Source of the DNA: a virus
Length of the DNA stretch: 56,938 nucleotides
Reading direction: 5' to 3' (one strand)
Virus record (IMG/VR): IMGVR_UViG_3300045988_173917
Span: 1 to 56,938 of that record
The stretch's first letter is position 1, and the number at the start of each line of letters is the position of its first letter. This document shows positions 226 to 51,115 of the stretch, piece by piece. The translations under genes were made by a program, and so were the position numbers. Under the pieces are notes generated by a model, which was not told the DNA's origin, did no database searches, and was given only the letters and a program-made list of their open reading frames with translations.

Positions 226-1293
226 TTAGTCATTCAAATAGTTTTTTGCACTTTCAATAATTTCTTTTGAATAATTATATAACTCTTCAAGAGACGTAAT
301 TAGGTATTTTGTTCCTTTTTTATTTTCATCAAATACTTCAAGATATTTATTCGATCGATTAAAATGTAAACGACAGATAGGTTTTCTATTGTTATCATCT
401 AGTAATATGCCAAAATAAGAGATGGTATCTCTATATATAACTCTATTTAAATCAACAATCCCATGTAAAATTGATTTTACAATATAGAATCCTTGCAATT
501 CTTCTTCTGTAGTTACAATTAAATCTTCTCGGCTTTCTTCTTGTATTTGTTGTTCCTGATCTTGAGATTTAATTTCATCAGTTTGTGATTTTATTACCGA
601 TTTAAGTTTGTCGCTTATGTAATCACTGTTATACTGTTGAAAAGCTCTTCTTAACATATCTCTAAATTGTTCAACAATTGGTTTCGTGAGCATTGACGGA
701 TATACTTGTTTTGCAAAGTATTTTACAAATTCATCAGAAGGATCAGCTATTTCTTTAACGATTAGATTTCTTAATTCTGTAGTATATTTTAACTCACTTG
801 CAGTATTTAGAATAGATTCAATATCAAAGTAACTTTTATGAAATTCTTTTAACTTTTCAACTTGAACCTCTTTTAAGTCTTCTATGTTAATCTCAAAAAA
901 TGGTTTGTCATCCATTTTATTTGGCTCTACTAGGTCAGCATAGAACTTATAAATTATGCCGTTTGTGAGTATACCAAATTTAGCTTTAGATACATGATAG
1001 TACCTTAGAAGCTGCCCACTATGTAAATTTAAATCTTGCTTCCAGTGTTTGCATTCGATTAATATAATTGGATCTCCATCTTTACAAATTGTATAATCAA
1101 TTTTTTCACCTTTCTTTGTTCCTATATCACAAACACATTCTGGTATCACTTCTGTTGGATCGAAAATATCATATCCAAGAGATTGTATGAATGGAAGTAT
1201 AATAGCTGTTTTTGTGGCTTCTTCTGTTGCAATACTTTCTTTTAACTTGGATGCACGCTCTCCAAGTATTTTAATTTGATCTTTAAAATCCAT
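226..1293 (-). CDS. PD-(D/E)xK nuclease-fold protein, type I restriction HsdR N-terminal-like domain
   Basis: 355-aa ORF. The segment IDYTICKDGDPIILIECK fits a D...ExK restriction-endonuclease-like core. It is the first gene inside attL, transcribed with the repressor arm (moron position). Confidence 0.6.
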   Translation of the reverse strand: MDFKDQIKILGERASKLKESIATEEATKTAIILPFIQSLGYDIFDPTEVIPECVCDIGTKKGEKIDYTICKDGDPIILIECKHWKQDLNLHSGQLLRYYHVSKAKFGILTNGIIYKFYADLVEPNKMDDKPFFEINIEDLKEVQVEKLKEFHKSYFDIESILNTASELKYTTELRNLIVKEIADPSDEFVKYFAKQVYPSMLTKPIVEQFRDMLRRAFQQYNSDYISDKLKSVIKSQTDEIKSQDQEQQIQEESREDLIVTTEEELQGFYIVKSILHGIVDLNRVIYRDTISYFGILLDDNNRKPICRLHFNRSNKYLEVFDENKKGTKYLITSLEELYNYSKEIIESAKNYLND

Positions 1294-4492: not shown

Positions 4493-4999
4493 ATGGAAAA
4501 TAATCAAAAAACACAAGAGCAGCATCTTACCCATTGGAAAAGACTGGTAAATCCTGATTATCTAGGGGTATATTCTTTGGATAACGGGAAGGACATGACA
4601 TTAACTATTGACCGGATCGTCCGGGAAGTAGTAACAAGTACTGGAGGCAAAAAAGAAGAATGTACAGTAGCTTACTTCAAAGAAAAAGTAAAGCCGATGA
4701 TCCTAAACCGTACCAATTCAAAAATGATTCAGAAAATATACAATACCCCTTACATTGAAGAATGGGCAGGGAAAAAAATAACTGTATATGCGTCCGCGAC
4801 AAAACTTGCCGGAGAAGAAGTTGAATGTCTTCGTATCCGTCAGCTGGTTCCACAAAATCCGGTTTTGAAAATAGAGGATAAAGTGAATTTCGATAAATGT
4901 AAATCTGCGCTGCAAAACGGATATACAATCAGTCAGTTACGGACCAAATGGACAATTACTAAAGATGTAGAGCAAGCTTTGACCAATGAAGGAATTTAA
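4493..4999 (+). CDS. Hypothetical early protein
   Basis: The start is moved to ATG 4493 (MENNQKTQEQ) because the upstream part of ORF 4337-4999 overlaps structured tRNA-like RNA. The stop overlaps the start of the exonuclease gene. Confidence 0.6.
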   Translation: MENNQKTQEQHLTHWKRLVNPDYLGVYSLDNGKDMTLTIDRIVREVVTSTGGKKEECTVAYFKEKVKPMILNRTNSKMIQKIYNTPYIEEWAGKKITVYASATKLAGEEVECLRIRQLVPQNPVLKIEDKVNFDKCKSALQNGYTISQLRTKWTITKDVEQALTNEGI

Positions 5000-5669
5000 A
5001 ATCAGATGTTCGCAAATAGGGAAAATAATCGGCACTGGAAAGGGAAATCCGCTAACCAAAACTGCCATGTCTTATTGCAAGACATGGCTAAAAGAACAAC
5101 TATACTGCCGACGTTATGAGTTTCGTAGCAAATATACGGACAAAGGGCATATTGTTGAAGATGAATCAATCGACTTTATCGGCGATCAACTCGGGTTAGG
5201 ATTTTTGATAAAGAATGACAAACAGTTCGAAAATGACTACTTTACCGGAGAGCCGGACATAATACCGCCTAATATTGATTTGGTCATAGATGCTAAAAAT
5301 AGTTGGTCTTGGGAATCATTCCCCATACTTGAAGAAGAAATTCCCACATTGGACTATTATTGGCAATTACAAGGATATATGAGCTTAACAGATAGGCATC
5401 ATGCGAAACTTGTATATGTATTGTCGGATACTCCTCAACATCTTATTGAAAGAGAAGCTCGAAGATACTGTTATGACAACGGTTTTGAAGAACTTGATAT
5501 TGACATATACAACAAGTTCTTAGCAGATATGACGTATACAGATGTTTCAAACAACTTAAAAATAAAAGTATTTGACATTGAGCGTAGTAATGAAGACATT
5601 GTACTTGCCAAAAATAAAGTAATTGAGTGCAGAGAATACATTTCAACCCTATTAAATCAAATAAAATGA
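4986..5669 (+). CDS. YqaJ/lambda-Exo-like PD-(D/E)xK recombination exonuclease
   Basis: GEPD...DLVIDAKNS fits the D...D/ExK core of YqaJ-type viral exonucleases. It lies directly upstream of SSB. Confidence 0.75.
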   Translation: MKEFKIRCSQIGKIIGTGKGNPLTKTAMSYCKTWLKEQLYCRRYEFRSKYTDKGHIVEDESIDFIGDQLGLGFLIKNDKQFENDYFTGEPDIIPPNIDLVIDAKNSWSWESFPILEEEIPTLDYYWQLQGYMSLTDRHHAKLVYVLSDTPQHLIEREARRYCYDNGFEELDIDIYNKFLADMTYTDVSNNLKIKVFDIERSNEDIVLAKNKVIECREYISTLLNQIK

Positions 5670-6061
5670 TAGAACTACAAGCTATAGGTAACATCGGCAA
5701 GGATGCCGAGCAGAAAACAATAGGCGGCAAGTCATACGCCTCATTTTCAATCGGTGTAACAGAAAAAACATCAGACGGGAAAGACAAGACAACATGGCTC
5801 CGGGTAATGAAATACGACAGCGAAGGTAAGTTGACCGCATACCTTACAAAAGGGAAAAAGGTTTGGGTACGTGGCAATCCCTACTTTTCTGCTTATGTCA
5901 GTAAAAACACAGGTGAAGCCATCCCGGACACGACTATATGGGCTGACAAACTCGTGTTCTGTTCTTCAGGAGAAAAGCAGAATGGACAGCAAGACACCGG
6001 ACGGCAACCGCAAGAACAGCAAACAACGGATAACTATTACGACGATCAACTTCCTTTTTAA
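5666..6061 (+). CDS. ssb: Single-stranded DNA-binding protein
   Basis: OB-fold-like N-terminus (LQAIGNIGKDAEQKTIGGKSYASFSIGV...TTWLRV). Q/G-rich linker. Acidic C-terminal tip DDQLPF, typical of SSB. Confidence 0.85.
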   Translation: MIELQAIGNIGKDAEQKTIGGKSYASFSIGVTEKTSDGKDKTTWLRVMKYDSEGKLTAYLTKGKKVWVRGNPYFSAYVSKNTGEAIPDTTIWADKLVFCSSGEKQNGQQDTGRQPQEQQTTDNYYDDQLPF

Positions 6062-6063
6062 TC

Positions 6064-6588
6064 ATGAAAACAAAAATTTGCATTAGATGCGGCATTGAAA
6101 AATCTATATCTGAATTTTACGTTCATCATGAAATGAAAGATGGTCATCTGAATAAATGCAAGATGTGCTGTAAAAAAGATGCTGCTTTTAACTATAAAAA
6201 GAAAAGCAAAAATGTGTGGTTTATCGAAGCGGAAAGAAGAAGAGGTCGAGAGAAATACAAACGATTGAATTATAAAGAAAAATATCCTCCAGATAAATTA
6301 AAATCCAACGCAAAAACAAAAAACCTACACAGATATCTAATATCGGCAGGATATGATATGAATATGAAAGAAGCTCATCACTGGAATTATGACTTACCAA
6401 AACAAGGCTTCATTTTGACGAGAAAATGCCATAAGTTAGTCCATAAATTTTTGACATTTGACGCCAAAACAAGATGTTTTAAATGGGGAGACATAATTTT
6501 GGACAGTCTTGAAAAACATTATGATTTCATAAAACATGTGTTCGATGAAAATAATGTTAATTCTGATATCATTTGCTTTAAGCTATGA
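6064..6588 (+). CDS. Putative HNH endonuclease with N-terminal zinc ribbon
   Basis: CIRCG...CKMCC cysteine pairs, and AHHWNY...CHKLVH resembling an HNH motif. Confidence 0.5.
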   Translation: MKTKICIRCGIEKSISEFYVHHEMKDGHLNKCKMCCKKDAAFNYKKKSKNVWFIEAERRRGREKYKRLNYKEKYPPDKLKSNAKTKNLHRYLISAGYDMNMKEAHHWNYDLPKQGFILTRKCHKLVHKFLTFDAKTRCFKWGDIILDSLEKHYDFIKHVFDENNVNSDIICFKL

Positions 6589-7019
6589 AAATCAAACTCC
6601 TTAACACTTCCGTCGGTCTGAAACCGTTATACGATGAAGATTTAGAGGAAAAGAAAAAGTTGAAAATCGGAGAGGTTTACGAGGCCACTATCAAGCGGCC
6701 TCGAAACCTTTCCTTTCACCGAAAATATTTCGGACTCATTAACCTTGCCTGGGAATATCAGAATGAGATAGCGGTAGAGCATTTCAAGCACAGCATCGAA
6801 CTATTCAGAAAAACGGTAGAAATGGCAGCCGGATGGTGTGAGCCGATATACTCGATTGCCCGGAAAGAGTGGATTGAAGTTCCGAAGTCTATTGCTTTCG
6901 ATAAAATGGACGAAGACGAATTTCAAAACCTATACGAACGTGTAAAGGACGTATTATTTAAATACTTCCTCAAAAACATTTCAGTTGAAGAATTTGAAAA
7001 GAACCTTATTAATTTTTGA
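6585..7019 (+). CDS. Hypothetical phage early protein (DUF1367-like by recollection)
   Basis: RNLSFHRKYFGLINLAWE resembles the conserved FHRK(Y/F)F motif of that family. Overlapping start and stop with both neighbours. Confidence 0.45.
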   Translation: MKIKLLNTSVGLKPLYDEDLEEKKKLKIGEVYEATIKRPRNLSFHRKYFGLINLAWEYQNEIAVEHFKHSIELFRKTVEMAAGWCEPIYSIARKEWIEVPKSIAFDKMDEDEFQNLYERVKDVLFKYFLKNISVEEFEKNLINF

Positions 7020-7321
7020 TGAACTCATACATGACCAGCTCCGGCGAATATGTTCTTAAATCGGTCATAGACCGCCGGATTAGAGCAGCCAAAGAAAAGA
7101 AGATAGCCCAGATGATTGAAAAATATGGCTATCTTTTCTGTGAGGAATGTCATAGAAATGAGGCTGCAGGTATTCCACTTGATTGTTCACACGATATTCC
7201 AGTAAGTGAATGTCAAAAAAGAGGCCAATCGGAATTAGCCTGGGATGTAAATAACATTACAATCAGGTGCCGGGAATGCCACCACAAACATGATCATCAA
7301 TCACAATTTAGTTTTCCATGA
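7016..7321 (+). CDS. HNH endonuclease
   Basis: CEECH...CSHDIPVSE...NNITIRCRECHHKHD fits an HNH/zinc-finger core. Confidence 0.6.
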   Translation: MMNSYMTSSGEYVLKSVIDRRIRAAKEKKIAQMIEKYGYLFCEECHRNEAAGIPLDCSHDIPVSECQKRGQSELAWDVNNITIRCRECHHKHDHQSQFSFP

Positions 7322-7500
7322 AAATCCCATCTACCCTTTCTGCTCAAATCCTTTCCTTTCTATTTAAGGATAAAGCCGGACTAATCAGGCATCTCAAAGA
7401 GATACAAGATAGCCCGGTTTCTTTTTCGGATGTAAAAGGGAGGGAAAGACAAAGGAAGGCGGGGATACTGGTTAAGAAACTTGAAAAATTGAAACATTAA
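7318..7500 (+). CDS. Hypothetical protein
   Basis: 60-aa ORF whose start overlaps the upstream stop. Confidence 0.4.
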   Translation: MKIPSTLSAQILSFLFKDKAGLIRHLKEIQDSPVSFSDVKGRERQRKAGILVKKLEKLKH

Positions 7501-7504
7501 AATT

Positions 7505-7981
7505 ATGACAGCAACCTATTTTGAATCCACAGTAAAATACGAAAAAGTAAATGAGGATGGCAAAGCAAAGAAAGTGACTGAATTATACCTCATAGATGCA
7601 ATGAGCTTTTCGGAAACAGAAGAAAGGAGTTGCAGGCAGTTATCCGAAATAGTTCAGGGGGATTACCTCATTCAATCCCTGAAACGGTCAAAAATAACAG
7701 AATACATTGAATCAAATGACGAAAACGATGACCGACTCTACAAAGCAACAGTTAAAATAACCGATAGCGATAACTTCGGCAAAGAGAAAGAATCCTCAAT
7801 TCATTATCTAGTTGCCGCATCAAACATCAACCGGGCATTGGATAACCTCGAAAAATCACTGTCAACATTTGTAATACCCTATGAGATAGTAAAAATCGAA
7901 GATACGAAGTTTGTAGAAGTGATCCCCTACATACCGGACGACAAAGAACGCATACCGGACAATTTAAAACCACAACAATAA
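7505..7981 (+). CDS. DUF4494-like protein (Bacteroidetes phage-associated)
   Basis: The N-terminus FESTVKYEKVNEDGKAKKVTELYLIDAMSFSETEERS resembles the conserved start of that family as I recall it. Confidence 0.55.
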   Translation: MTATYFESTVKYEKVNEDGKAKKVTELYLIDAMSFSETEERSCRQLSEIVQGDYLIQSLKRSKITEYIESNDENDDRLYKATVKITDSDNFGKEKESSIHYLVAASNINRALDNLEKSLSTFVIPYEIVKIEDTKFVEVIPYIPDDKERIPDNLKPQQ

Positions 7982-7999
7982 CACTAAAACTATAATATC

Positions 8000-8389
8000 A
8001 TGGAAAAAATCACAGACAAAATTAAATCCTTCGAGGATGCTTGCAAGCATCTCAGACTTAACCCTAACGACCTGCCGGTTGTAGATATGCTTCCGGAGAA
8101 AGATAGGAAATCAATTATCGCATTCTACAAGCTTACAATTATTATCAGAGCATTGAATGAAGGTTGGGAACCAGATTGGTCAAATTGGGATGAATGTAAG
8201 TATTACAACTGGTTTTACGTTGAAAAAGGAGAAGACCAGCGTTCCTCCGGTTTTCGTTCCTACGATACGTACTACACGGATACGGACACGTGCACCGGCT
8301 CTCGGCTTTGCTTTAAGAATAGAGAATTAGCCGAATACGCCGCAGAACAATTCAAAAAACTATATCGTGAATATTTACTCATTCTTTAA
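8000..8389 (+). CDS. DGR target protein 1 (small, 129 aa; VR1 near the C-terminus)
   Basis: Contains VR1 at 8239-8311. It is a paralogue of the next gene (shared W.PDWSN...KYY..F...SSGFR.YDT...TGSRLC...AEY...F..LY). No signal peptide is evident. Confidence 0.85.
   Translation: MEKITDKIKSFEDACKHLRLNPNDLPVVDMLPEKDRKSIIAFYKLTIIIRALNEGWEPDWSNWDECKYYNWFYVEKGEDQRSSGFRSYDTYYTDTDTCTGSRLCFKNRELAEYAAEQFKKLYREYLLIL
8239..8311 (+). repeat. DGR variable region VR1
   Basis: 73-nt alignment to the TR shows 10 mismatches, all at TR adenines (TR positions 21, 23, 32, 41, 47, 53, 54, 59, 66, 70). Confidence 0.9.
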
Positions 8390-8399
8390 AAGAAAAAAC

Positions 8400-8876
8400 A
8401 TGAAGAAGACATTAGAGATAACGGAAGAACAAGCAAAGAAACTCTACTTTGAAGCATCCGAAAACTTCAAAGAAGTACTTGAATCGAACTTCGGGAAGAC
8501 AACATTTCTGAAAAACTTTCAAGACGCAGTAAAGACATACTATGATGCTTGTGAAATCATAGGAGAAAAGCCGATTGACGAACAGCATTTAATGGACTGT
8601 GGACTCGGAAAGTCGGAAATCGCATTCATGAAATTGAAAACAATCTTCAAAGCTGCAAATAAAATGAACAACGATTGGAAAGCAGATTACTCCAATTCAA
8701 GCCAGTATAAATATTATCCGTATTTTGTTTGGCGTTCCTCCGGTTTTCGTTACTACGATACGGACTACGCGCGTACGAGCACTTACACCGGCTCTCGGCT
8801 TTGCTGCGGTACATCTGATGATGCAGAATACATCGGAAAAAAATTTGAAGATTTATATAACGATTATTTTGGATAA
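8400..8876 (+). CDS. DGR target protein 2 (158 aa; VR2 near the C-terminus)
   Basis: Start taken at ATG 8400 (MKKTLEIT). Contains VR2 at 8732-8804. Paralogue of target 1. Confidence 0.85.
   Translation: MKKTLEITEEQAKKLYFEASENFKEVLESNFGKTTFLKNFQDAVKTYYDACEIIGEKPIDEQHLMDCGLGKSEIAFMKLKTIFKAANKMNNDWKADYSNSSQYKYYPYFVWRSSGFRYYDTDYARTSTYTGSRLCCGTSDDAEYIGKKFEDLYNDYFG
8732..8804 (+). repeat. DGR variable region VR2
   Basis: 73-nt alignment to the TR shows 11 mismatches. Ten are at TR adenines (23, 32, 38, 41, 42, 48, 53, 59, 66, 70) and one is G-to-T at position 52. Confidence 0.9.
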
Positions 8877-9208
8877 TGGAAAATAATGATGATGGAAGCC
8901 TGGGATTTCTGAATATTCAGCCCGATGAAGACAGGAAATATTTCCATTGTGAAGAGATAACCCAGCAAAAACTTTTAAACAAGTCATTCTGGGTTATCGA
9001 CTTTATCGGCAATCTCAAAACAAGGTATGGAAAGGAAAGATACCTTGTGAAAATCAAATTCGACATAGAAGATTCCGATGATAATGCGCGAAAATTCTTT
9101 ACGAACTCCAGTGAAATAAAATATATCCTCGACAAGATAAGGGAACTAAAGAAATTTCCTCGCAAAGTCACTATGTGTGCAGAAGGCACAAGATATTACT
9201 TCAAGTAA
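8876..9208 (+). CDS. Hypothetical protein between DGR target 2 and the TR (not Avd-like by eye)
   Basis: 110-aa ORF whose start overlaps the stop of target 2. The sequence looks beta-rich (FWVIDFIGNLKTRYGKERYLVKIKFDIED) rather than a four-helix bundle. Confidence 0.6.
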   Translation: MENNDDGSLGFLNIQPDEDRKYFHCEEITQQKLLNKSFWVIDFIGNLKTRYGKERYLVKIKFDIEDSDDNARKFFTNSSEIKYILDKIRELKKFPRKVTMCAEGTRYYFK

Positions 9209-9234
9209 AATTTCTGGGTTGTTTACCTGCGAGG

Positions 9235-9307
9235 GCGTTCCTCCGGTTTTCGTTACAACGATACGAACTACACGAATACGAACACGAACACCAGCTCTCA
9301 GCTATGC
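9235..9307 (+). repeat. DGR template repeat (TR), minimum extent
   Basis: Non-coding copy of the VRs. It reads RSSGFRYNDTNYTNTNTNTSSQLC in the VR frame, with five AAY codons. Weaker similarity to the target genes extends upstream to about 9213. It lies about 100 nt upstream of the RT start. Confidence 0.9.
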
Positions 9308-9410
9308 AGGAAAATAAAAACGGGTAAAGACCTTGCCACTCGGCAAAAAATCACGGAAATGTTTAAGGGTGTTAGTAAGAAATTCCGAACGCTCCCTAAG
9401 AAACCAGCAA

Positions 9411-10400
9411 ATGAAAAGAATAGGAAACCTGTACGAGAAAATTTGCGACATTGAAAATCTTTACCTCGCCGACACAAAAGCAAGCAAAGGAAAATCAATG
9501 ATGCACGGAGTAATAAGGCACCGAAGGAATCGGGATGAAAATCTCAGAAAACTTCATGAACTTCTGCAAAATGGGAACTTCAAAACATCGGAGTACAAAA
9601 CGTTCAAAATATTCGACCCGAAAGAAAGGGAAATATACCAGCTTCCATACTATCCAGACCGGATTGTACATCATGCCATAATGAACATACTGGAACCCAT
9701 ATTCGTATCGGTCCTCACAAAAGACACATATAGTTGCATTAAAGGAAGAGGCATTCATGGAGTAGTAAAAAATATCCGGAAATCACTTTCAGACGTTGAT
9801 AATTCCATTTATTGTCTGAAACTCGACATCAGAAAATTCTATCCATCAATAGACCATAAGATACTAAAAGAAATAATCAGACGGAAAATCAAAGATATAC
9901 GCCTCCTTTCATTGCTTGATAATATTATAGATTCGGCACCTGGCGTACCTATCGGAAACTACCTGTCACAATATTTTGCCAATCTCTACCTCGCTTATTT
10001 CGACCACTGGATAAAAGAGATTTTGAAAGTAAGATATTATTTCAGATATGCAGATGACATTGTCATACTCGATGTTGACAAAACACATCTTCATGACCTC
10101 TATTTTGAAATAAGAAACTATTTGTGGGACAATCTAAATTTAGAAGTAAAAGGGAATTGGCAAGTATTTCCAGTTTGTTCAAGAGGCATAGACTTTGTCG
10201 GATATGTATTCTATCACACTCATACAAAAATGCGCAAGCGGATTAAGAAAAAATTTTGCAAAAAAGCATCCATCCTTTTCAAAAAAGGAATCAAACAAAA
10301 TGAATGTGTACAAATACTTAGTCCGTGGATTGGATGGTCAAAACATTGTAATAGCAGACATCTATTAAAAAAACTAAGATTAAATCGGAATGAGCAATAA
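9411..10400 (+). CDS. DGR-type reverse transcriptase
   Basis: MKRIGNLYEKI... N-terminus. The IGNYLSQYFANLYL motif is the DGR-specific (I/L)GxxxSQ. The YADD catalytic box occurs in FRYADDIVIL. It is adjacent to the TR. The start is moved to ATG 9411 because upstream codons overlap the TR and spacer. Confidence 0.92.
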   Translation: MKRIGNLYEKICDIENLYLADTKASKGKSMMHGVIRHRRNRDENLRKLHELLQNGNFKTSEYKTFKIFDPKEREIYQLPYYPDRIVHHAIMNILEPIFVSVLTKDTYSCIKGRGIHGVVKNIRKSLSDVDNSIYCLKLDIRKFYPSIDHKILKEIIRRKIKDIRLLSLLDNIIDSAPGVPIGNYLSQYFANLYLAYFDHWIKEILKVRYYFRYADDIVILDVDKTHLHDLYFEIRNYLWDNLNLEVKGNWQVFPVCSRGIDFVGYVFYHTHTKMRKRIKKKFCKKASILFKKGIKQNECVQILSPWIGWSKHCNSRHLLKKLRLNRNEQ

Positions 10401-10545
10401 TTTATTCACACCAGAAGACAGCGAGCGCATCGAATTACTCTGTCAGCTTAATCGCTTAGAGGCTCCCGTAGAAAAGTTACGGGAGCTTGTTGTTTATACA
10501 GAAAAATATAACCGCAAAAAGGAAAGGGAAGAGGGAAAGAAATGA
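10390..10545 (+). CDS. Possible small ORF (51 aa) overlapping the RT stop
   Basis: ATG at 10390 overlaps the RT stop, and its TGA overlaps the ATG of the next gene. The only support is this translational-coupling geometry. Confidence 0.35.
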   Translation: MSNNLFTPEDSERIELLCQLNRLEAPVEKLRELVVYTEKYNRKKEREEGKK

Positions 10546-12500: not shown

Positions 12501-13259
12501 ATGGCAAGGCAATTAAAAGAAGGATTGGATTTTTTTTCTTTTGATGTCGATTTTTTTGATGACGAGAAAATAGGTGCAATTTCGGGAGAGTTCGGGATAA
12601 AAGGAGAAATTACGGCAATAAAGCTGCTATGTGCGGTATACAGAAATGGATACTTCATTATGTGGAATGAGCCGTTAAAAATGAAACTTTTAAAATCCCT
12701 TCCTGGAATAAGTTCTGAACTGCTGGAACAAATCGTGAATCGCTTAGTTAGGTGGGGGTTCTTTGACAGCTCCTGCTTTAACTTGGAAAAGATTCTGACA
12801 AGTGAAGGTATTCAGAAGCGATATTTCTCGGCAATAAAAAGAAGAAAACCAAAGGAAGAATATCCTTATCTACTCATTAATGTAGACAATAATCCTATTA
12901 ATGTATTCAACAACGACATTAATGTATACAAAAGTACACAAAGGAAAGGAAAGAAAATAAATAATTCCCCTATAAATCCCCCTTTAGATTTTTCTGGGGA
13001 CGAAATCATGCACATCCATGAACTGAAAAAAAGAATATTTTCTGACGAAACAGCATGGATGGAAACTGTTGCCATGAAAAAACACATCACACCGGACGGC
13101 ATAACAGAGTGGATAAACAATTTCTTTGACGAGCTTGAATGCACCGGAGAAAACATGAAAAGCGTGAAAGACTTCAAATCTCATTTTTTTCGATGGCTTA
13201 AAATCCAACTAAAAGACAGAAAGGAGGAAAACAATGACAGAAGACTTGAAAACTGGTAG
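12501..13259 (+). CDS. DUF4373-like replication-associated protein (replisome organiser or helicase-loader candidate)
   Basis: LDFFSFDVDFFDDEKI...GEFGIKGEITAIKLLCAVYRNGYF resembles the Lin1244/DUF4373 N-terminal domain. It lies directly upstream of and overlaps dnaB. Confidence 0.6.
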   Translation: MARQLKEGLDFFSFDVDFFDDEKIGAISGEFGIKGEITAIKLLCAVYRNGYFIMWNEPLKMKLLKSLPGISSELLEQIVNRLVRWGFFDSSCFNLEKILTSEGIQKRYFSAIKRRKPKEEYPYLLINVDNNPINVFNNDINVYKSTQRKGKKINNSPINPPLDFSGDEIMHIHELKKRIFSDETAWMETVAMKKHITPDGITEWINNFFDELECTGENMKSVKDFKSHFFRWLKIQLKDRKEENNDRRLENW

Positions 13260-14589
13260 ATCAAAATCGACAATTACAGAAAAGGCTGTTTTAGGGGCGA
13301 TGTTAGTGTCCCCTGATATAATTACCGATGTCGTATCGAAATTAAGCGCAGACTCTTTCTTTGATGTCGAAAACAGGATAATTTTTGAAGCCATTCTAAA
13401 ACTGAATGACGATAACACGCCTGTAGACCTGATTTCCGTTGCCGAACAACTGAAACAATCCGGTAAAATCGAAGAAGCAGGAAATTACAGCTATCTGGCA
13501 GAACTTACCAACCAGTCAGGATTAGGAATTGCGCGGATAGAATACTACTGCAAAATACTCTTACAATTACAGGTCGAACGCCTGTTGATAGACATGAGTA
13601 TGGAAATTATCCGTATGTCTGACGGAACAAACGACGTATCAGATACGATTTCATTTGCTGACAGGCAACTACAACGCATCAATGATGTACTTTCCTGCAA
13701 CAACAGAATGGAGCACATTTCAACGGCAATAGAGAAAGCAGCCGATGAATCAATTATCCGGACAAACAATCGAAGGCAGGGCAAAATGACCGGTGTAACA
13801 TCCGGATTAAAAGAACTCGACACGATGACCTCCGGATTCAAGGGTGGAGAATTAATAATCCTTGCCGCCCGTCCGGCGATGGGCAAGACGGCAATGTTGT
13901 TGTATTTCGCAAAAAGTGCTGCAAGACAGGGTATTCCAGTCTGTATATACTCCCTCGAAATGGACAGCATTAGTCTTGCCGACAGGTTGATATTATCAGA
14001 AACGAGTATCGAAGCAGACAAGTACCGGAACGGATACATATCAAACGCAGAGTTTAACGAAATCGCAGGAGCGAAAAAGAGACTTTCAGAACTACCGATT
14101 TACGTAGACGACAATCCTATCGTATCAATGCGGTACATTCGCACACACTCTAAAAAAATGGCTAGGCAAGGGAAATGCGGATTGATACTTGTCGATTATC
14201 TCCAGCTTGCCGATATGAGCGAAAAAGGTAAGAACAGAGAGCAAGAAGTGGCACAGGCGAGCCGGCAGGCAAAGATAATTGCAAAAGAGCTTAATGTGCC
14301 GTTTATCCTCCTTTCTCAGCTTAATCGTGCTTGTGAGGAGCGAATGGATAAGAAACCACAACTTTCCGATCTTCGGGAATCTGGAGCCATTGAACAAGAT
14401 GCTGACAAAGTAATATTTGTTTATAGACCGGAGTATTACAAGCTGGAAGACCAGCATGGAAACCCAATAGTCGGAGAAGGAGCGTTGATAATGGCAAAGC
14501 AGCGTAACGGTGCTGTCGGAGATGTAAAGTTTAGGTATAACGAAAGTCTGACACAGATATATGATTACAATAACGCCAATCCATTTTAA
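13234..14589 (+). CDS. dnaB: Replicative DNA helicase DnaB
   Basis: N-terminal domain EKAVLGAML...FFDVENRIIFEAI. Walker A ARPAMGKT. Walker B LILVDYLQL. SQLNR and ESGAIEQDAD motifs. Confidence 0.92.
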   Translation: MTEDLKTGRSKSTITEKAVLGAMLVSPDIITDVVSKLSADSFFDVENRIIFEAILKLNDDNTPVDLISVAEQLKQSGKIEEAGNYSYLAELTNQSGLGIARIEYYCKILLQLQVERLLIDMSMEIIRMSDGTNDVSDTISFADRQLQRINDVLSCNNRMEHISTAIEKAADESIIRTNNRRQGKMTGVTSGLKELDTMTSGFKGGELIILAARPAMGKTAMLLYFAKSAARQGIPVCIYSLEMDSISLADRLILSETSIEADKYRNGYISNAEFNEIAGAKKRLSELPIYVDDNPIVSMRYIRTHSKKMARQGKCGLILVDYLQLADMSEKGKNREQEVAQASRQAKIIAKELNVPFILLSQLNRACEERMDKKPQLSDLRESGAIEQDADKVIFVYRPEYYKLEDQHGNPIVGEGALIMAKQRNGAVGDVKFRYNESLTQIYDYNNANPF

Positions 14590-15978: not shown

Positions 15979-16776
15979 ATGGAAAGACATATAAAACGTA
16001 GCATAGATTTAATTCAAAAATTGGAAAAAGATTCGATTTACAATCTTGGATTTTCAGGGGGAAAAGACAGTATAGTCCTTCTTGATTTAACTAAAAAATC
16101 CGGAGTAAAATTTGAGGCTGTTTATTCCAATACAACGATAGATCCGCCAGGAACAATCCCTTTTATTCGGAACAATTATCCGGAAGTGAAAATAGTAAGT
16201 CCTAAAGAAAGTTTTTTCCAACTTGTAGCAAGAAAAGGATTACCATCACGACAGCGTAGATGGTGTTGCGAGATATTGAAAGAGAATTACGGTGTTGGGA
16301 AAAGGAATCTGGAAGGAATGAGATGGGAAGAATCTTCTGGAAGATCAGGGTATGAACCAGAGCAATGCGATACAAGGAAAAAGATGAAAGGCGCTTGTCA
16401 TGTGCTCCCGTTACTTCATTGGACGGAAGTACAAATATGGGATTACATTCGTGGGAATGATTTGCCATATATGAAATACTACGACCCACCCTATAATTTC
16501 ACCCGGCATGGATGTGTAGGTTGTCCACTTGCTCAAAAGCAACAAATGCAGTTAGAGTTTAAGACATTCCCCAAATATGCCTTTGCGCTTATGAAAGCTA
16601 TCAGAAAATATCAGATGTTAAAACCAGATTCATTTTGGGGTAAAAACTTCTTAAATGAGTACGAAGCGTTTTATTATTATTTGCATGATATGACCTTACA
16701 AGATTTTAAGTTCATGAAAAGTGCATCTCTTTTTGAAAATGATTTTAAAAAAATTATAAAAAAATGGCTAGCATGA
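15979..16776 (+). CDS. PAPS reductase-like / PP-loop ATP pyrophosphatase family protein
   Basis: FSGGKDS PP-loop at the N-terminus. Cysteine motifs CC and CVGCP lie downstream. Confidence 0.8.
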   Translation: MERHIKRSIDLIQKLEKDSIYNLGFSGGKDSIVLLDLTKKSGVKFEAVYSNTTIDPPGTIPFIRNNYPEVKIVSPKESFFQLVARKGLPSRQRRWCCEILKENYGVGKRNLEGMRWEESSGRSGYEPEQCDTRKKMKGACHVLPLLHWTEVQIWDYIRGNDLPYMKYYDPPYNFTRHGCVGCPLAQKQQMQLEFKTFPKYAFALMKAIRKYQMLKPDSFWGKNFLNEYEAFYYYLHDMTLQDFKFMKSASLFENDFKKIIKKWLA

Positions 16777-30954: not shown

Positions 30955-33900
30955 TTAGTAATTCCCTCCTATGAAATTTGATGTCCAATATGATCCACTC
31001 CAAATTAAAACTTGCATCGCCCCTTTTTTAATAACATCTGAATTTGTTGTCGTATCTGCCTCTACCCTTATTGTCCCGCGCAATGTTATATTTCCCGTTC
31101 CACATTTCCGGATCCAATACATTTTACCTTTTTTTGCAGCAGGCCTGTTACTTGGTAAAGTTATTGTTATATCAGATGATGCAGTGGTTATTATTATATC
31201 ATCTTTATTTGTTAATGTAGTCGAGGAACTAACGACCCTTACGTTTAATCCAAATCCATTGATTATAGAATCGTTGATCATTCTGATATGGCCGTTTTCA
31301 ATGTCCAGGGCGATGTTTTTACCCACATCACTATAGACTTCCGGGCATCCTGTTGCTTTTACATAAATGCCAATATTATCTGTAACATCAGTATTTGATT
31401 TTATTTCATTATTTTCAAATCTTGCACATCCTCTTAAAGCAGTAGTAGGGGCTGGTATACTGGCGCCAATTGCAGCAAGGTAACGACCTGATCTGAATTT
31501 CATAAAATTATTGTATAATGAAAGACCATTGTAAGACATATTACTGTCAGCAACGCCAATCATGTTACTCCCTATTTTAAATCCTCCAATTATACCGCTA
31601 GTCGCTGTAATTTTTCCTGTAAACTCTCCGTTAACTGCAATAAGTTTTCCATCTGTTGTAATCTGAACATTCCCGTTTGCACTAATAGCTCCATTAAGAT
31701 TAATCCTACTTGCATCAATTGTAACGCCTCCTCCGCCAACATTAATAGATTCAATAACTTCTTGCCCTAATGCATTTTTATTTGAAGAAAAAATTGTAAC
31801 GAAATTACTTTGTGTTACAACACCAGATATTTCTTGGGTACCATTTATAATTTTAGATACTGTAGAAGAAATTTGGTTGTAACTAACTTGTAAATTGCTA
31901 ATATCTGATTTTATTAATTGATCATTTGCATTATAGACATCTAGAGATACTTTATTTTCGATCAATCCTTTTGTTATATTTATTTCAGCATTAAGTTCTT
32001 CCTTTGTTGCATTCGTAAGAACAGGCCTGATTACCGAAGCACTAGGAGCAACAGATGACCCATCTAGAGCCGTATAACGACTATCGTGTACTACTGCTAC
32101 ACAATTGTTCCCGATTTTAAATATGTACCTACCACCTCCACGAAGATAAATAAGTTCTTCGCTGCTACTGGCTAGTTGCCCAATACTGCCGGCAGGGAGT
32201 ATATATTGCACTGGGGTAGTATCGGGTATTTCCTTGGTAAATTTACATTCGAAAATCTCAATTATTCTATTAATAACATTTGCCCCCCATCCACTCCCGT
32301 TACTACGCCATACACAGTTCATTGAAAAACCTAATTCATGCGTTGACCATTTTGGTATTCCAAAATCACTATTAAGTGGCGAAACAACTTCTATCCTTGT
32401 TTCTGAGTTTGATAATTTAATAGTTACCGGATAATATGTGTCCTGATCCCACTTTTCAGCCCTTAAGTCGATATCTGTTTCACGATATGTTTGAATAGTT
32501 GTGTATTCTTTTGCTTCATCAATTGCCTCTTGTTTAGCCTCTTCCACTCTCTCAGAAACTTCGTTAACCCTTAAACTTATTTCTCCGTTTTCGGCTTTAA
32601 TTTCGGTCAGGGTTTTCGTTATCGTTTTTATTTCTGCTTGCTGCTCGGAGAAAGAAGGAGTCCATACGGAAGCAGGCAGAAAACCTTCGACTAGCATTAC
32701 TTCGGTGAACCGGACCGAATTCCCTTCGGTATGCGCGGCTTCTCCGGCGTAACAAAGTAAATACCCTTCCTGAGCTTCAAAATCGCTTCTGGTAATTATA
32801 ATACCACCGTTTTTGTCATAAAGGTGATGGTAAGTAGTTGTTAGATAAGATTTAATAGATTTATCAAATAAAATGAAATCACACTTGCTAATATTGCCTG
32901 ATAAGAATTCTATATTTTGGGCATTCACATAATAAACTGTATTCGGCTTGATTACAGGCATATACAGAGCTTTATATGCATAATCATTTGTTTCTCCTTC
33001 AACCGTAAACGGCCCTTTTGTACCATCCGCCAAATTAACGTTATTAGCTCCGATCTGGTCTTCTGCTGCTACTGGAAAGCCTTGCAGGGGTTTATTGCCT
33101 TCGATTAGGGAGATGTTGTAAATTTTTGGATTATTAAATGATCCGATATAAAAACAAATTTTTTCAACCGTTTTGCCTAATGTTGATACTAAATCTATTC
33201 TTCCAAAACTTATGCTTAATCCGTGAATACTTCTGCTTCCATCTGTATAGTAAAAGAATATATCTCCACTTCTTGCCACAGATTTCGATTCAATACTAAT
33301 TACATATTGTGTGTTTGTCTTGTATTTTATTTTATTCTCAAAAATATCAACATATTGACCATTATAAGTACCGGTTGCAATACCAGATGATGTCATTAGT
33401 GCTAAATCCCATATCAAGTACACCCCGTCTTCATCCTGCCCCCAGACCGCAATATTCTTGTTCTTCTCATTCCACTTCAACATCATTTTTTTGGATATAA
33501 GGTTCTGGGAACCGATCTGTATCCCATCCACAACCTTTCCCGCTTCATCTATTGCAATCTGCTTCTGATCGTTTATGGAGGGGGTCCACAATAGCGAAGT
33601 TTTATTGCCTAATACTAGTTTTACCCACTCTATTTCAGATTCAACGGATACACTATTAGGCATTGGATATATCCGAATAAATGTATTATCAATAGCAGGC
33701 GTTAACGTCCATTTAAAAGTTTTCAAAGCAATATAATCTGTATCGGGACCACCAGGATAAAAACTAGCCAATACAACATTCCCTCCAGAATTGTAAACAG
33801 CCCAGTTTGTTTTATTCGCCCCTAATTTGCCTTTAATAACAATTGTACATTCTTCTCCCTGCTTAGGTTTGTAGTCTCCTAAGTAAATGGTCGCTATTGG

Positions 33901-36183
33901 ATAACCAGTATTCTTCCATCCCTTGTTACTATTGTCAAGAAGGTTGGTTTCTCCTACTTGTAGGTTGTCCAGGTTACTCTGCACGTCTCCGATGGACTCT
34001 TCCACCGTTTTGCCGGACATCAGTCTGAACACCCCTTTCATGTAAACGTTCTGACAATACAATCCGAATCCTGTCAACTGCCCGAAATCTTCATCCACTA
34101 TGCCATTCAAATTACCCGTCCGCATCGGTTCTTTCCCTTCAAAAGAATAGGAGTTTATCCCAGCATAGAAAGCAATGTAAGGCGAATTGTTGTCATGCGC
34201 CGAAATCATTATCGCGGATTGGCGGTTTATGTCTGTCCGGTTTCCTAATAATACTATTTCTTCATCAGCCTCCGGGATACCGCTATTCGCCTCACAATCC
34301 GTTTTTGACAAGACAAAGTAATCCGCGCCTACCTCCGTGACAAGACGCCAATATCTCTTCATTTTCTGCCCGTCAAAAACTTGATGAAAAGCTTGGTCGC
34401 CCACTACGAAAGGATTTATTATCGTCCCGCTGTCAGTATTGAAAAAGCACTTGTACCCATTCTCTGTCTCCTCTACACTTCCCGTCTTTATAGCTGCCGG
34501 AGAGACACAGAACTTCCCGCCGATTGCCTTTACCTGCTGTATCAGAAACTCAAACACGCTGAACTGACCCCTTACCGTCAGATTCTGAAACTCAGCATTC
34601 CCGTCTTTTATTCTGTGTCCGCTACCAAGCGCTCCGGAGGTGAAATTCTTGGATGAGAAATTGTCGGATTGGACTAATTCAGCCGCTTTCACAGAATTAA
34701 ATTCAACGTCCGCGTCTTTATGTAACTTTTGATTGAACCACTTCGGATACCACGCATTGATAAGGTTATAGAAGAGCCTTTTTATATCATCTATATTGAT
34801 AAGCTGCTTTAAGGTGAATTGTATCTGCTCTATTGTATTATTTACCTTAGTGTCGTAGGTATAAAGCATCTGGTCGCCCAATTCAACCCTTATATCATCG
34901 CTTGTTTCAGTAGTACCGATAATTCTTGTCGTGATATTCCGCCTGCCTATTTTTACGGTAATTCCATCACCGATATTCAGTGATATTCCTTTCTTCTTGA
35001 TATAGTGTTTTTGAACTGATAGAGACGGGGCGTATTGCGGTTCACACTTTTTGTTCAGCTCATTTTGTGTTGCCTCCCTCAATTCCTGTGTTGCTTCATC
35101 TATGTAAGATTGCGGCATATTGATGTTAAGGAGGACAAACACGTCTCCGACACGTGGCTGTCTGTTTGCATTCGGAAGATAATACCCGTCTTCTTCCTCT
35201 TTTACGATAATTGAAAGCGTCTTGTCGGTATTGTTCCAGCTGTTTTCCACTATCTCAAAGTTCAACCCGGTCAAATCCCCCGTCTGAAACTTGACTACCG
35301 GGATTTCATTCTCCGCATAGTATTCAGACAGATTGAAAGGAATATCAAGTTTTATCTTCCAACTTCCGGCTTCCTCTATGTTTTCCGGAACGGTCACGCC
35401 TAACACCGTCTTATTAATCAAGCGAGGGTAGATGTTTTCATTCACATACACCCCGGTAATCTTTCCGTACTTTTCTACGTTCTTTTCAATGACTTCATCA
35501 CCCAAATTCAACCTTTTGGGGCTGTCCGGAGAATCATAGTCGGCCGGAAGATTCAGAGTGCCGCCTTTCCCTATCATTCGAGTGGTTACGGAAGCATTAG
35601 CGACCTTTGCGAGTTTCACGGAGTAGCTTCCTTTGTTTTTCCCATATTCAAACACATAGTCGGTTTCTTCTCCGATTCTCCTCTTGACGGTTATCACGGT
35701 TCCCGTAATGTCCCACTCCATTTCGGCATTCTCGCATACCGTTTGGAGTGCTGCCATGCAATTACTATTGTCAAAGCTCAAATCAAGGATACTTCCGTTC
35801 TGAATGGTTCCAAGGGTAAATTCCGGATAGTCCTCGTTCAAGGAATCAATCAGCAATGTCATGAAGTCGCTGACCTCTCCATGGTAGGCAAATGTTGTCG
35901 CTCCTTCGTCCGTTATGATTGAATTGTTCAGCTTATATCCTTGAAAATAGAACGTAAGCGGATAGGTAAACACTCCGTTACTTTCCTCTATATCAATAGG
36001 CCCGAAAATCTCGTACTTTTCATTCCCGACTAAAACATAGTCGCCTATCTTTAAGTCAAGATCATTCTTTGACGAAATAGTGAACGAAACATATTTATTT
36101 CCGCTTAATGACTTCGAGATGGTATCATCAACGACAAATTCGTAAATAACGGTATTATCTCTATATATGCTATATCCTTTCAT
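30955..36183 (-). CDS. Tail tip/Tal-like protein fused to a long fibre/receptor-binding region (1742 aa)
   Basis: Called from position (TMP, Dit, then this gene) and size. No TR-like sequence occurs inside it. Confidence 0.75.
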   Translation of the reverse strand: MKGYSIYRDNTVIYEFVVDDTISKSLSGNKYVSFTISSKNDLDLKIGDYVLVGNEKYEIFGPIDIEESNGVFTYPLTFYFQGYKLNNSIITDEGATTFAYHGEVSDFMTLLIDSLNEDYPEFTLGTIQNGSILDLSFDNSNCMAALQTVCENAEMEWDITGTVITVKRRIGEETDYVFEYGKNKGSYSVKLAKVANASVTTRMIGKGGTLNLPADYDSPDSPKRLNLGDEVIEKNVEKYGKITGVYVNENIYPRLINKTVLGVTVPENIEEAGSWKIKLDIPFNLSEYYAENEIPVVKFQTGDLTGLNFEIVENSWNNTDKTLSIIVKEEEDGYYLPNANRQPRVGDVFVLLNINMPQSYIDEATQELREATQNELNKKCEPQYAPSLSVQKHYIKKKGISLNIGDGITVKIGRRNITTRIIGTTETSDDIRVELGDQMLYTYDTKVNNTIEQIQFTLKQLINIDDIKRLFYNLINAWYPKWFNQKLHKDADVEFNSVKAAELVQSDNFSSKNFTSGALGSGHRIKDGNAEFQNLTVRGQFSVFEFLIQQVKAIGGKFCVSPAAIKTGSVEETENGYKCFFNTDSGTIINPFVVGDQAFHQVFDGQKMKRYWRLVTEVGADYFVLSKTDCEANSGIPEADEEIVLLGNRTDINRQSAIMISAHDNNSPYIAFYAGINSYSFEGKEPMRTGNLNGIVDEDFGQLTGFGLYCQNVYMKGVFRLMSGKTVEESIGDVQSNLDNLQVGETNLLDNSNKGWKNTGYPIATIYLGDYKPKQGEECTIVIKGKLGANKTNWAVYNSGGNVVLASFYPGGPDTDYIALKTFKWTLTPAIDNTFIRIYPMPNSVSVESEIEWVKLVLGNKTSLLWTPSINDQKQIAIDEAGKVVDGIQIGSQNLISKKMMLKWNEKNKNIAVWGQDEDGVYLIWDLALMTSSGIATGTYNGQYVDIFENKIKYKTNTQYVISIESKSVARSGDIFFYYTDGSRSIHGLSISFGRIDLVSTLGKTVEKICFYIGSFNNPKIYNISLIEGNKPLQGFPVAAEDQIGANNVNLADGTKGPFTVEGETNDYAYKALYMPVIKPNTVYYVNAQNIEFLSGNISKCDFILFDKSIKSYLTTTYHHLYDKNGGIIITRSDFEAQEGYLLCYAGEAAHTEGNSVRFTEVMLVEGFLPASVWTPSFSEQQAEIKTITKTLTEIKAENGEISLRVNEVSERVEEAKQEAIDEAKEYTTIQTYRETDIDLRAEKWDQDTYYPVTIKLSNSETRIEVVSPLNSDFGIPKWSTHELGFSMNCVWRSNGSGWGANVINRIIEIFECKFTKEIPDTTPVQYILPAGSIGQLASSSEELIYLRGGGRYIFKIGNNCVAVVHDSRYTALDGSSVAPSASVIRPVLTNATKEELNAEINITKGLIENKVSLDVYNANDQLIKSDISNLQVSYNQISSTVSKIINGTQEISGVVTQSNFVTIFSSNKNALGQEVIESINVGGGGVTIDASRINLNGAISANGNVQITTDGKLIAVNGEFTGKITATSGIIGGFKIGSNMIGVADSNMSYNGLSLYNNFMKFRSGRYLAAIGASIPAPTTALRGCARFENNEIKSNTDVTDNIGIYVKATGCPEVYSDVGKNIALDIENGHIRMINDSIINGFGLNVRVVSSSTTLTNKDDIIITTASSDITITLPSNRPAAKKGKMYWIRKCGTGNITLRGTIRVEADTTTNSDVIKKGAMQVLIWSGSYWTSNFIGGNY

Positions 36184-50758: not shown

Positions 50759-51115
50759 TCATCTCTTTGCTTTTTTATATATCTTAATATCCATTCCTAC
50801 TGACCTTGCAACAGCAACGGGACGACTACTTAAAAAAGATATATTATTTTTTAAGTCGTAGTATCCAATATCAACAGGCTTTGAATGAGGATAATATACC
50901 TTTCCGTACAGTCTTTTTTTGTCGTTTTTTTCCCATAATTTCCATTCTATAGTACCAACAGGTTTACCATGAATGTCTATATGAAGTTCTGGGACCTCAA
51001 TAATTCCATCTTTTGTATTATATGTTTTAAATCCTTCCCTTTGTTTTATTGTTTTCCCTCTGCTACTTGATGAACTACTACTTCTAACTTCTCCGCTTGT
51101 TTTAGCCATTTTCAC
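50759..51115 (-). CDS. Hypothetical protein
   Basis: 118-aa ORF that overlaps the upstream stop. Confidence 0.5.
   Translation of the reverse strand: MKMAKTSGEVRSSSSSSSRGKTIKQREGFKTYNTKDGIIEVPELHIDIHGKPVGTIEWKLWEKNDKKRLYGKVYYPHSKPVDIGYYDLKNNISFLSSRPVAVARSVGMDIKIYKKAKR

Follow-up and report, generated by a model that had tools for sequence, protein, structure and literature searches.

The viral sequence IMGVR_UViG_3300045988_173917 of IMG/VR (positions 1 to 56,938, analysed over its full length and called the window hereafter) looks like the genome, of about 57 kb, of a gut phage of siphovirus type, and it carries on its plus strand a diversity-generating retroelement (DGR) directed at two small proteins, designated T1 and T2. 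In this region, a gene for a DUF4494 protein is followed, in this order, by T1, T2, an open reading frame (ORF) for a 110-aa protein, a template repeat (TR) and the gene for a reverse transcriptase (RT), and one variable repeat (VR) lies inside each of the target genes (Table 1). An RT of the DGR clade, a non-coding TR with VRs that differ from it almost only at adenines, and traces of mutagenic retrohoming in populations are all present, whereas Avd is absent, and the element is a complete, Avd-less, lineage-3-like DGR. The anatomy of this DGR, the family membership of its targets and their location outside the structural module can, taken together, be held with very high confidence.

The mutable core of the TR (9254-9292) contains 18 adenines, and the translated TR reads RSSGFR-YNDTNYTNTNTNT-SSQLC. 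Comparison of this repeat with the two VRs revealed that all 10 mismatches to VR1, and 10 of the 11 mismatches to VR2, fall on TR adenines. In the TR codons, five AAY codons alternate with codons that hold a single adenine, an arrangement by which each VR could encode 15^5 x 4^8 (about 5e10) different peptides. At the 3′ end of the repeats, adenines 9293, 9300 and 9304 of the TR are replaced by G, G and T in both VRs, and the same differences are fixed in nearly all of the VRs of relatives. These three fixed 3′-terminal differences probably mark the initiation of mutagenic homing (IMH) sequence of the VRs as opposed to the IMH* of the TR. No significant hairpin or cruciform was predicted 3′ of the VRs (z = -0.6 and +0.35). 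Searches of the window with an A-to-N pattern, allowing up to five extra substitutions, and with relaxed blastn-short detected no copies other than the TR, VR1 and VR2, and matches to the TR in the fibre gene were limited to chance stretches of 11 nt.

RTs of the DGR clade are recognised by the signature [I/L/V]GxxxSQ in motif 4 together with YxDD. In the RT of the window, which probably starts at the ATG at 9411 (MKRIGNLYEKI...), these hallmarks correspond to IGNYLSQ (residues 181-187, 9951-9971) and YADD (residues 213-216, 10047-10058), and the protein matched Pfam RVT_1 (E 2.4e-14) and phrog_1423 (E 2e-121). Its closest relatives, with 46-59% identity, are the DGR RTs of crAss-like phages and of Bacteroides phage Versailles. 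Avd is a typical component of DGRs, not a universal one. No Avd-like match was found among the proteins of the cassette, and DGRs of lineage 3 without avd have been described (PMC5758913, PMC7290462).

The product of the ORF located between T2 and the TR belongs to a family of basic proteins of about 100 aa (median pI 9.0) found together with this RT clade in 73 loci. The same family constitutes the ORF directly 3′ of the RT in 65 other loci, the usual place for this gene, unlike in the window, where it lies upstream of the TR; examples elsewhere are L097:9540-9836 and L124:9551-9844 (L numbers denote our locus set). Neither the protein nor its family matched entries of Pfam, NCBIfam or the PDB, comparison of the family profile with PDB sequences retrieved nothing credible, and no likeness to Avd was apparent at the sequence level. 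This accessory family is a candidate to stand in for Avd in Avd-less DGRs. An identification of the accessory protein with CH1 of Wu et al. was considered and rejected, since CH1 proteins are acidic and have 160-169 aa (PMC5758913) versus about 100 aa and a basic character here.

T1 and T2 are paralogues (39% identity, E 2e-23) of acidic character (pI 5.3; overall ~5.3-5.5), and both match over their full length phrog_11581, a family without assigned function in PHROGs, with T2 representing a long form that has an additional N-terminal helical segment. Analysis of T1, T2 and the accessory protein against Pfam, NCBIfam and PADLOC gave only matches at noise level. The highest 19-residue Kyte-Doolittle mean is 0.89 for T1 and 0.54 for T2, compared with a family median of 0.90, and the hydropathy peak of the family corresponds to a conserved amphipathic helix. 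As judged by hydropathy only, and leaving this helix aside, no stretch resembling a signal peptide or a transmembrane segment was found in T1, T2 or 124 family members. Each VR is followed by conserved helical residues (25 in T1 and 23 in T2), and so does not occupy the extreme C terminus. These results bear out the observations of an earlier note prepared from the bare sequence of the window, which had located the VRs in two paralogues of 129 and 158 aa in the early/replication arm, and not in a tail fibre or receptor-binding protein, had seen neither signal peptide nor transmembrane segment in them, and had found no TR-like sequence in the fibre gene or elsewhere. The conserved helix that it had pointed out after each VR was also recovered, both in AlphaFold models (residues 108-126 of T1 and 139-157 of T2) and throughout the family.

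Conserved elements of the family are an N-terminal helix (IKtFEDACk.LG), a long helix ending in ALNEGW, an aromatic segment.PDW.N...KYYPWF (W.PDW.N...KYYPWF), the VR itself, which follows the scheme sG.GF-(13 variable residues)-vGSRLCFK, and a C-terminal helix pair (ELAEYAGKQF..LY). Two cysteines recur in the family (residues 15 and 104 of T1; alignments A2/A4): the cysteine of FEDAC, in the N-terminal helix, is nearly invariant, and that of GSRLC, at the base of the VR, is the consensus residue and is replaced in some members. A structural link or a metal site formed by this pair is possible. The longer family members, searched for fusion partners, contained no Pfam domains. One member of 206 aa (P0172) carries a C-terminal extension resembling a helix-turn-helix (…GISTPTLSRVLKKH…), a single case that might be either a real fusion or read-through in gene calling.

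The family is large: 2,320 homologues of T1 were found in a database clustered at 90%, and clustering at 50% identity leaves 2,802 representatives. Members mostly measure 120-170 aa. The earlier note had proposed to check how often the W.PDWSN...KYY..F...GSRLC family is linked to DGRs, and the linkage proved to be frequent. A search for divergent loci, built on an alignment of 12 family sequences, revealed 43 viral loci at 46-68% identity, 34 of which have an RT directly downstream and 33 of which show adenine-biased TR-VR pairs in the family genes. In GTDB, with one genome per species, an RT was present in 53 of 77 loci and such TR-VR pairs in 56. The hosts were Bacteroidales, Chitinophagales, Flavobacteriales (Elizabethkingia, Chryseobacterium, Apibacter), Sphingobacteriales and Cytophagales, in addition to a few metagenome-assembled genomes of Ignavibacteria and Clostridia. 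The layout of the cassette comprises two, sometimes three, tandem targets, the TR, the RT and the ORF of about 100 aa (TTRa in 52 loci and TTTRa in 9). The genes flanking it vary between loci, almost all of them being on the same strand, and the impression is of an autonomous module that has entered the early operons of different phages. In these comparisons the family is a recurrent, dedicated DGR target across phages and prophages of Bacteroidota. No paper describing the family, the dedicated cassette or the accessory protein was found in the literature; large catalogues that list many unannotated DGR targets may include the family (PMC8144416, PMC8241571).

Evidence for diversification was obtained from 37 IMG/VR contigs (L001-L037) encoding relatives of T1 at 75-99% protein identity. 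Among them, VR1 and VR2 differ almost solely at positions of TR adenines, and the TR is identical in L003, L004, L006, L007 and L033. In an alignment of 59 close T1 homologues, entropy is near zero over most of the protein and shows a clear peak at residues 87-99, where the residues found are mostly those allowed by A-to-N changes (Y/C/F/S at TAC and T/A/S at ACG). Judging from these alleles, the DGR is active in nature. The RT is kept in 6 of the 37 relatives and is absent from the stretch examined in the remaining 31. By synteny, the block formed by the accessory gene, the TR and the RT was deleted or replaced in most of the RT-less relatives, with recurrent junctions at 8876|10366, 8883|10370, 8940|foreign DNA and 8644|11653 (window region 8877-10543 compared with the 37 contigs). 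VR alleles in these relatives have no possible renewal from a local TR; T1 and T2 are usually full-length, which suggests that the proteins matter even with frozen alleles.

The absence of the RT from most close relatives, the loss of TR and accessory gene by synteny and a drift at non-adenine positions in VR1 of L022-L026 would be in line with VRs that survive as relics without a present function, left in dispensable genes by earlier retrohoming. We consider this explanation extremely improbable, given that RT, TR and accessory gene are intact in the window, that the scaffolds are strongly conserved across the phylum with intact ORFs, and that the variation fits the TR-adenine pattern and, for the most part, the permitted sets of amino acids.

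Rearrangements of the repeats were also observed among the relatives. Crossovers between VR1 and VR2 (junction 8312|8732) have left a single chimeric target gene in L031, L032 and L034, and L001 has, at 2211-2616, where the TR would be expected, a VR1-like copy with the 3′ end of T1 and the beginning of T2 behind it. These arrangements are best read as recombination between repeats.

Regarding the setting of the cassette, the gene order mapped on the plus arm places T1 and T2 between recombination genes and replication-initiation genes, on the strand opposite to that of the structural genes and outside the tail module (Table 1). Comparison of the region with GenBank phages by megablast gave no match. 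The DUF4494 gene was considered as a part of the cassette and discarded, since it adjoins the cassette only in the clade of the window itself. Elsewhere in the window, a head-morphogenesis (minor head) protein encoded at 46232-47347 on the minus strand also matches phrog_16625, annotated as Bxa ADP-ribosyltransferase (E 1e-59), and may contain a toxin-like domain delivered with the virion. Possible roles in DNA modification or anti-restriction fall to three further gene products: a protein with an HSDR_N domain (N terminus of the R subunit of type I restriction enzymes; 226-1293, minus strand), a PAPS-reductase-like protein (15979-16776, plus strand) and a ParB-like nuclease (51112-52197, minus strand).

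Distant full-length members of the family were detected in Versailles, LoVEphage and several crAss-like phages. The DGR cassettes of the nearest RTs, those of crAss-like phages and Versailles, adjoin Mtd-like tail proteins, and one TR serves both a tail-protein VR and a family-member VR in Versailles, LoVEphage and the crAss-like phage cr60_1. The Versailles member (WAK79127.1), which hhalign assigns to the family with a probability of 99.5%, is encoded in the recombination/replication module, just downstream of NinB with one small ORF in between, a position similar to that in the window; for the LoVEphage member (CAJ1878432.1), a DNA methyltransferase gene is found about 1.7 kb upstream. The family members of Versailles, LoVEphage and a Bacteroidales prophage are located among recombination/replication or DNA-modification genes; in one Bacteroidales prophage locus, an AAA_23 ATPase and an SSB are found near the family member. 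The window has lost the tail target and retains only the small proteins as targets. The similarity between the small protein and the tail protein of Versailles in BLASTP is limited to the 38 TR-templated residues, with 71% identity, and it is apparently because of this shared VR alone that the depositors annotated the small one as 'tail protein'.

In cr60_1, the tail VR (L201:2135-2225) and the remote VR (L200:4213-4276) agree at 15 of 20 TR-adenine positions, 11 of these 15 being mutated to the same base, which seems to be more than independent mutagenesis would produce. This agreement suggests one cDNA seeding both sites or gene conversion from VR to VR.

Table 1. Features of the DGR cassette, of its surroundings in the window and of three distant family members (E values from profile matches)
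Feature	Position	Strand	Remarks
T1	8000-8389	+	ORF; 129 aa, short form of the phrog_11581 family (E 3.6e-30)
VR1, in T1	8239-8311	+	mutable core 8258-8296 = residues 87-99, SYDTYYTDTDTCT
Candidate IMH of VR1	8297-8311	+	
T2	8400-8876	+	ORF, opening at GTG 8367; 158 aa from ATG, long form of the family (phrog_11581, E 3.8e-26)
VR2, in T2	8732-8804	+	mutable core 8751-8789 = residues 118-130, YYDTDYARTSTYT
Candidate IMH of VR2	8790-8804	+	
Accessory gene	8876-9208	+	110 aa, isoelectric point (pI) 8.5; phrog_19665 (E 7.8e-34)
TR	9235-9307	+	73 nt, non-coding; between accessory gene and RT
Candidate IMH* of TR	9293-9307	+	
TR-RT spacer	9308-9410	+	presumed 3′ part of the DGR RNA, from its position; small predicted hairpin, z = -1.8
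DGR reverse transcriptase	9411-10400	+	329 aa; ORF open from TTG 9333
Exonuclease	4986-5669	+	recombination/replication arm
SSB	5627-6061	+	recombination/replication arm
HNH-type endonuclease		+	listed between SSB and NinB/Orf in the plus arm
NinB/Orf recombination mediator	6585-7019	+	upstream of the cassette
Two small ORFs	within 6585-7981	+	between NinB/Orf and the DUF4494 gene
DUF4494 protein	7505-7981	+	upstream of T1
Replisome organizer	12501-13259	+	downstream of RT
DnaB	13234-14589	+	downstream of RT
Structural arm	22-50 kb	-	TerL, portal, major head protein (MCP), tape measure (TMP), fibre
Fibre gene	30955-36183	-	1742 aa
Versailles member	L196:4863-5444 = ON453897 10181-10762		remote VR; 112-nt TR match, 15/16 mismatches on adenines
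LoVEphage member	L197:5869-6453 = OY731433 54812-55396		113-nt TR match, 19/19 mismatches on adenines
cr60_1 member	L200:3986-4393 = NC_055891 14118-14525		63-nt TR match, 14/16 mismatches on adenines

The sharing of one TR between a tail protein and a family member in Versailles, LoVEphage and cr60_1 bears on the function of T1 and T2. It speaks for their being extracellular or virion-associated binders of glycans or receptors that are encoded outside the structural module, with a DGR serving host range as in BPP-1, and they would then act as a fibre-tip adaptor, as a decoration protein or as a soluble receptor-masking factor freed at lysis. The Mtd/CLec1 type of the VR and the deposition of the Versailles homologue as a tail protein point in the same direction, although the shared 38-aa VR explains that label by itself. 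However, no tail gene is targeted in the window or in most cassettes; in the window as well as in Versailles and LoVEphage, the genes sit with those for recombination/replication or DNA modification, and those of the window lie on the strand opposite to the structural genes; and hydropathy revealed no signal-peptide- or transmembrane-like segment. We regard such a role, in any of its three forms, as unlikely.

Other genes recurrent in the family loci encode an S24 repressor, an AAA_22 ATPase and an MBL-fold hydrolase. Many of these loci are prophages in which the S24 repressor is accompanied by integrase or transposition-type genes and, in addition, cellular DGRs have been tied to anti-phage sensing (as cited in PMC12629997), so that the family might be a prophage-encoded exclusion or defence sensor, which would use its hypervariable binder to detect the proteins of rival phages and so prevent superinfection. 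This explanation seems very doubtful, since no effector domain and no PADLOC match were found, the genes sit in a lytic early operon and not in the position of a moron expressed in lysogeny, and the family is present in crAss-like phages too.

Structure prediction with AlphaFold gave models of good overall quality for T1 (predicted local distance difference test score, pLDDT, 86.9; predicted template modelling score, pTM, 0.81) and T2 (pLDDT 90.6; pTM 0.80), consisting mostly of helices with very little beta structure and an irregular region that bears the VR. The VR is the part of lowest confidence in both models (pLDDT 52-71). Foldseek found no neighbour of either model in the PDB (best E 3.9-4.6, probability ≤0.09) and no lectin-type match, and the only neighbours in BFVD were uncharacterised proteins from sipho-, podo- and crAss-like phages of the gut. 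Similarly, no Pfam match to C-type lectin (CLec), FGE-sulfatase, Mtd or DUF1566 domains was obtained for T1, T2 or any of 66 members (E≤1), and the family profile revealed no credible relative among PDB sequences. Solved CLec proteins were also missed by a profile built from the tail-target family of Versailles, so lectin detection had no positive control in this comparison.

The VR, on the other hand, is of the Mtd/CLec1 type (..G.GF....[IV]G[FS]RLC, in the form SGFGF...VGSRLC), and hhalign paired the family VR with the VR found C-terminally in the tail target of Versailles, the alignment comprising essentially the VR alone. In Versailles, LoVEphage and cr60_1, the tail VR and the family VR derive from one and the same TR, and therefore the variable module is not new, only the scaffold and the genomic setting being so. 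At the level of sequence, T1 and T2 appear to combine a variable module of canonical Mtd type with a scaffold that is otherwise unrelated, and the alternation of fully variable positions with T/A/S/P positions suggests a strand or hairpin with one face exposed. According to the models, the scaffold is probably non-canonical, mostly helical and not recognisable as a CLec domain. Altogether, the unusual target fold proposed in the earlier note probably holds for the scaffold, which has neither CLec-type Pfam matches nor PDB neighbours, the structure prediction that it had called for having yielded no ordinary CLec/Mtd-like match in the PDB for either model; it does not hold for the VR segment, which is an ordinary one of Mtd/CLec1 type.

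The explanation that we favour for the whole system, to which we assign a probability of about 0.55, is that an Avd-less DGR diversifies T1 and T2 as variable intracellular binders. Reverse transcription of the TR RNA introduces errors at adenines and the mutated cDNA takes the place of VR1 or VR2, with the result that 13 consecutive codons are randomised per protein (87-99 in T1 and 118-130 in T2). According to this proposal, the two proteins would be made alongside the replication genes inside the infected cell, where their hypervariable patch would bind a partner that is itself polymorphic, the most plausible partners being defence or host-takeover targets. A larger repertoire would result from having two or three copies, each diversified on its own. 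We infer the co-expression with replication genes, the cytoplasmic location and the binding of a ligand through the variable patch. The specific role of T1 and T2 in intracellular counter-defence or in binding of a host factor is speculative, and we would put it at rather less than even odds. Somewhat less probable still is the broader proposal that Bacteroidota phages use a DGR to evolve, besides their receptor-binding tails, an intracellular antibody-like binder, a small early protein with a non-lectin helical scaffold, present in two or three separately diversified copies, that would neutralise polymorphic immunity proteins or other factors of the host.

Several points weigh against the explanation favoured here. 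The terms early and cytoplasmic derive from gene position and the absence of hydrophobic segments. Among known defence and anti-defence proteins, none resembles T1 or T2. Tail receptor-binding proteins have a VR of the same type, and the use of one TR for both could mean a shared class of ligands (surface glycans) and thus a virion or extracellular role. Furthermore, profile-profile comparison of the family with the tail-target family produced a weak alignment of 84 columns (probability 18.6%) that reaches upstream of the VR, and T1 and T2 might contain a minimal, much reduced or permuted CLec.

In this last case the scaffold would be a miniaturised or permuted CLec, that is, an ordinary variable protein minus its N-terminal domain; the fold would not be new, and this would be compatible with the proposed function. 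The type of the VR and its terminal G[FS]RLC motif fit CLec1 targets, Wu et al. placed similar undetectable cases in 'category c' of CLec1 by VR similarity alone (PMC5758913), Roux et al. regard VR domains without assignment as probable novel variants of CLec (PMC8144416), and a reduced CLec-like substructure could be hidden in the models because the VR is their least confident part. Against these arguments stand the confident models (pTM 0.80-0.81) without a Foldseek match in the PDB, even though solved DGR variable proteins are deposited there, the dominance of helices with beta-sheet nearly absent, the internal position of the VR, followed by a conserved helix pair, versus the C-terminal VRs of CLec proteins, the failure of all 66 members to match CLec-type Pfam domains and the low probability of the 84-column alignment itself. 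A CLec of this sort is, in our view, rather unlikely.

Host-range switching and the proteins of tails and receptor binding have been the main subjects of work on phage DGRs. That a widespread phage DGR should be dedicated to non-structural proteins would surprise a specialist, and the cassette described here is a self-contained one, found across a phylum, whose only targets are small proteins free of export signals and encoded among recombination/replication genes. In very common phages of the gut, among them LoVEphage and crAss-like phages, DGRs of tail proteins have the same family as a remote second target. These results raise the question of what a phage gains from hypermutating an early, probably intracellular, protein, for which Versailles, the LoVEphage prophages and BT-TP2 are cultivable systems. 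In addition, the family offers a compact natural display scaffold of about 125 aa for a randomised patch of 13 residues, and a new conserved accessory protein is defined for Avd-less DGRs. If the intracellular binding role of T1 and T2 were true, this would be the first DGR-driven counter-defence system and the second natural scaffold to tolerate massive VR variation.

Compared with the brt/TR/avd/mtd system of BPP-1, the window shares an RT with IGxxxSQ, a non-coding TR with AAC-rich codons, adenine-specific differences and a VR that ends in ..G.R..C and is followed by fixed differences of candidate IMH type. The target in BPP-1 is the tip of the tail fibre, whereas here there are two small proteins of the replication arm; Avd is present there, whereas here a basic accessory protein of about 100 aa is found and no Avd; and in the window the TR has just 73 nt, the VR is internal with a helix of about 25 aa after it, and a CLec is undetectable. 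The DGRs of lineage 3 (crAssphage LMMB, cr56_1 and cr60_1) have the nearest RTs (47-59% identity), the same order of target, TR and RT, and no avd (PMC5758913, PMC7290462). Loss of RT and TR is a further likeness, with a VR in 80 crAssphage genomes versus a TR in 30 (PMC7290462) and an RT in 6 of 37 loci here. The lineage 3 cassettes of crAss-like and Bacteroides phages differ in being located at the end of the structural module and in targeting Mtd-like tail proteins or tail-collar fibre proteins, whereas the cassette of the window is dedicated to small non-structural proteins and has an extra conserved accessory gene.

Targets of CLec1-type VR in which neither databases nor fold prediction reveal a lectin domain were described by Wu et al. 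in 2018 as 'category c', with three uncharacterised cases that resemble T1 and T2 by description (PMC5758913). Tentaclins (PMC10743442) are likewise phage DGR targets with a VR that is not C-terminal and with a second gene co-targeted by one TR. However, they have about 570-580 aa, with a C-lec followed by Ig domains, are read as receptor-binding proteins and are unrelated in sequence and setting.

Finally, distal second VRs have been reported near counter-defence genes in gut Bacteroidota prophages (PMC12629997), a situation similar to that of Versailles, LoVEphage and cr60_1, where a member of the phrog_11581 family carries the remote VR. The distal targets of that work, in which the protein family is left undefined, may by analogy belong to phrog_11581. 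In Versailles, LoVEphage and cr60_1 the family member is a remote, secondary target of a tail-protein DGR and has a longer VR (~38 aa), whereas in the window the family is the only target, is present as a tandem duplicate and adjoins a TR and an RT of its own.

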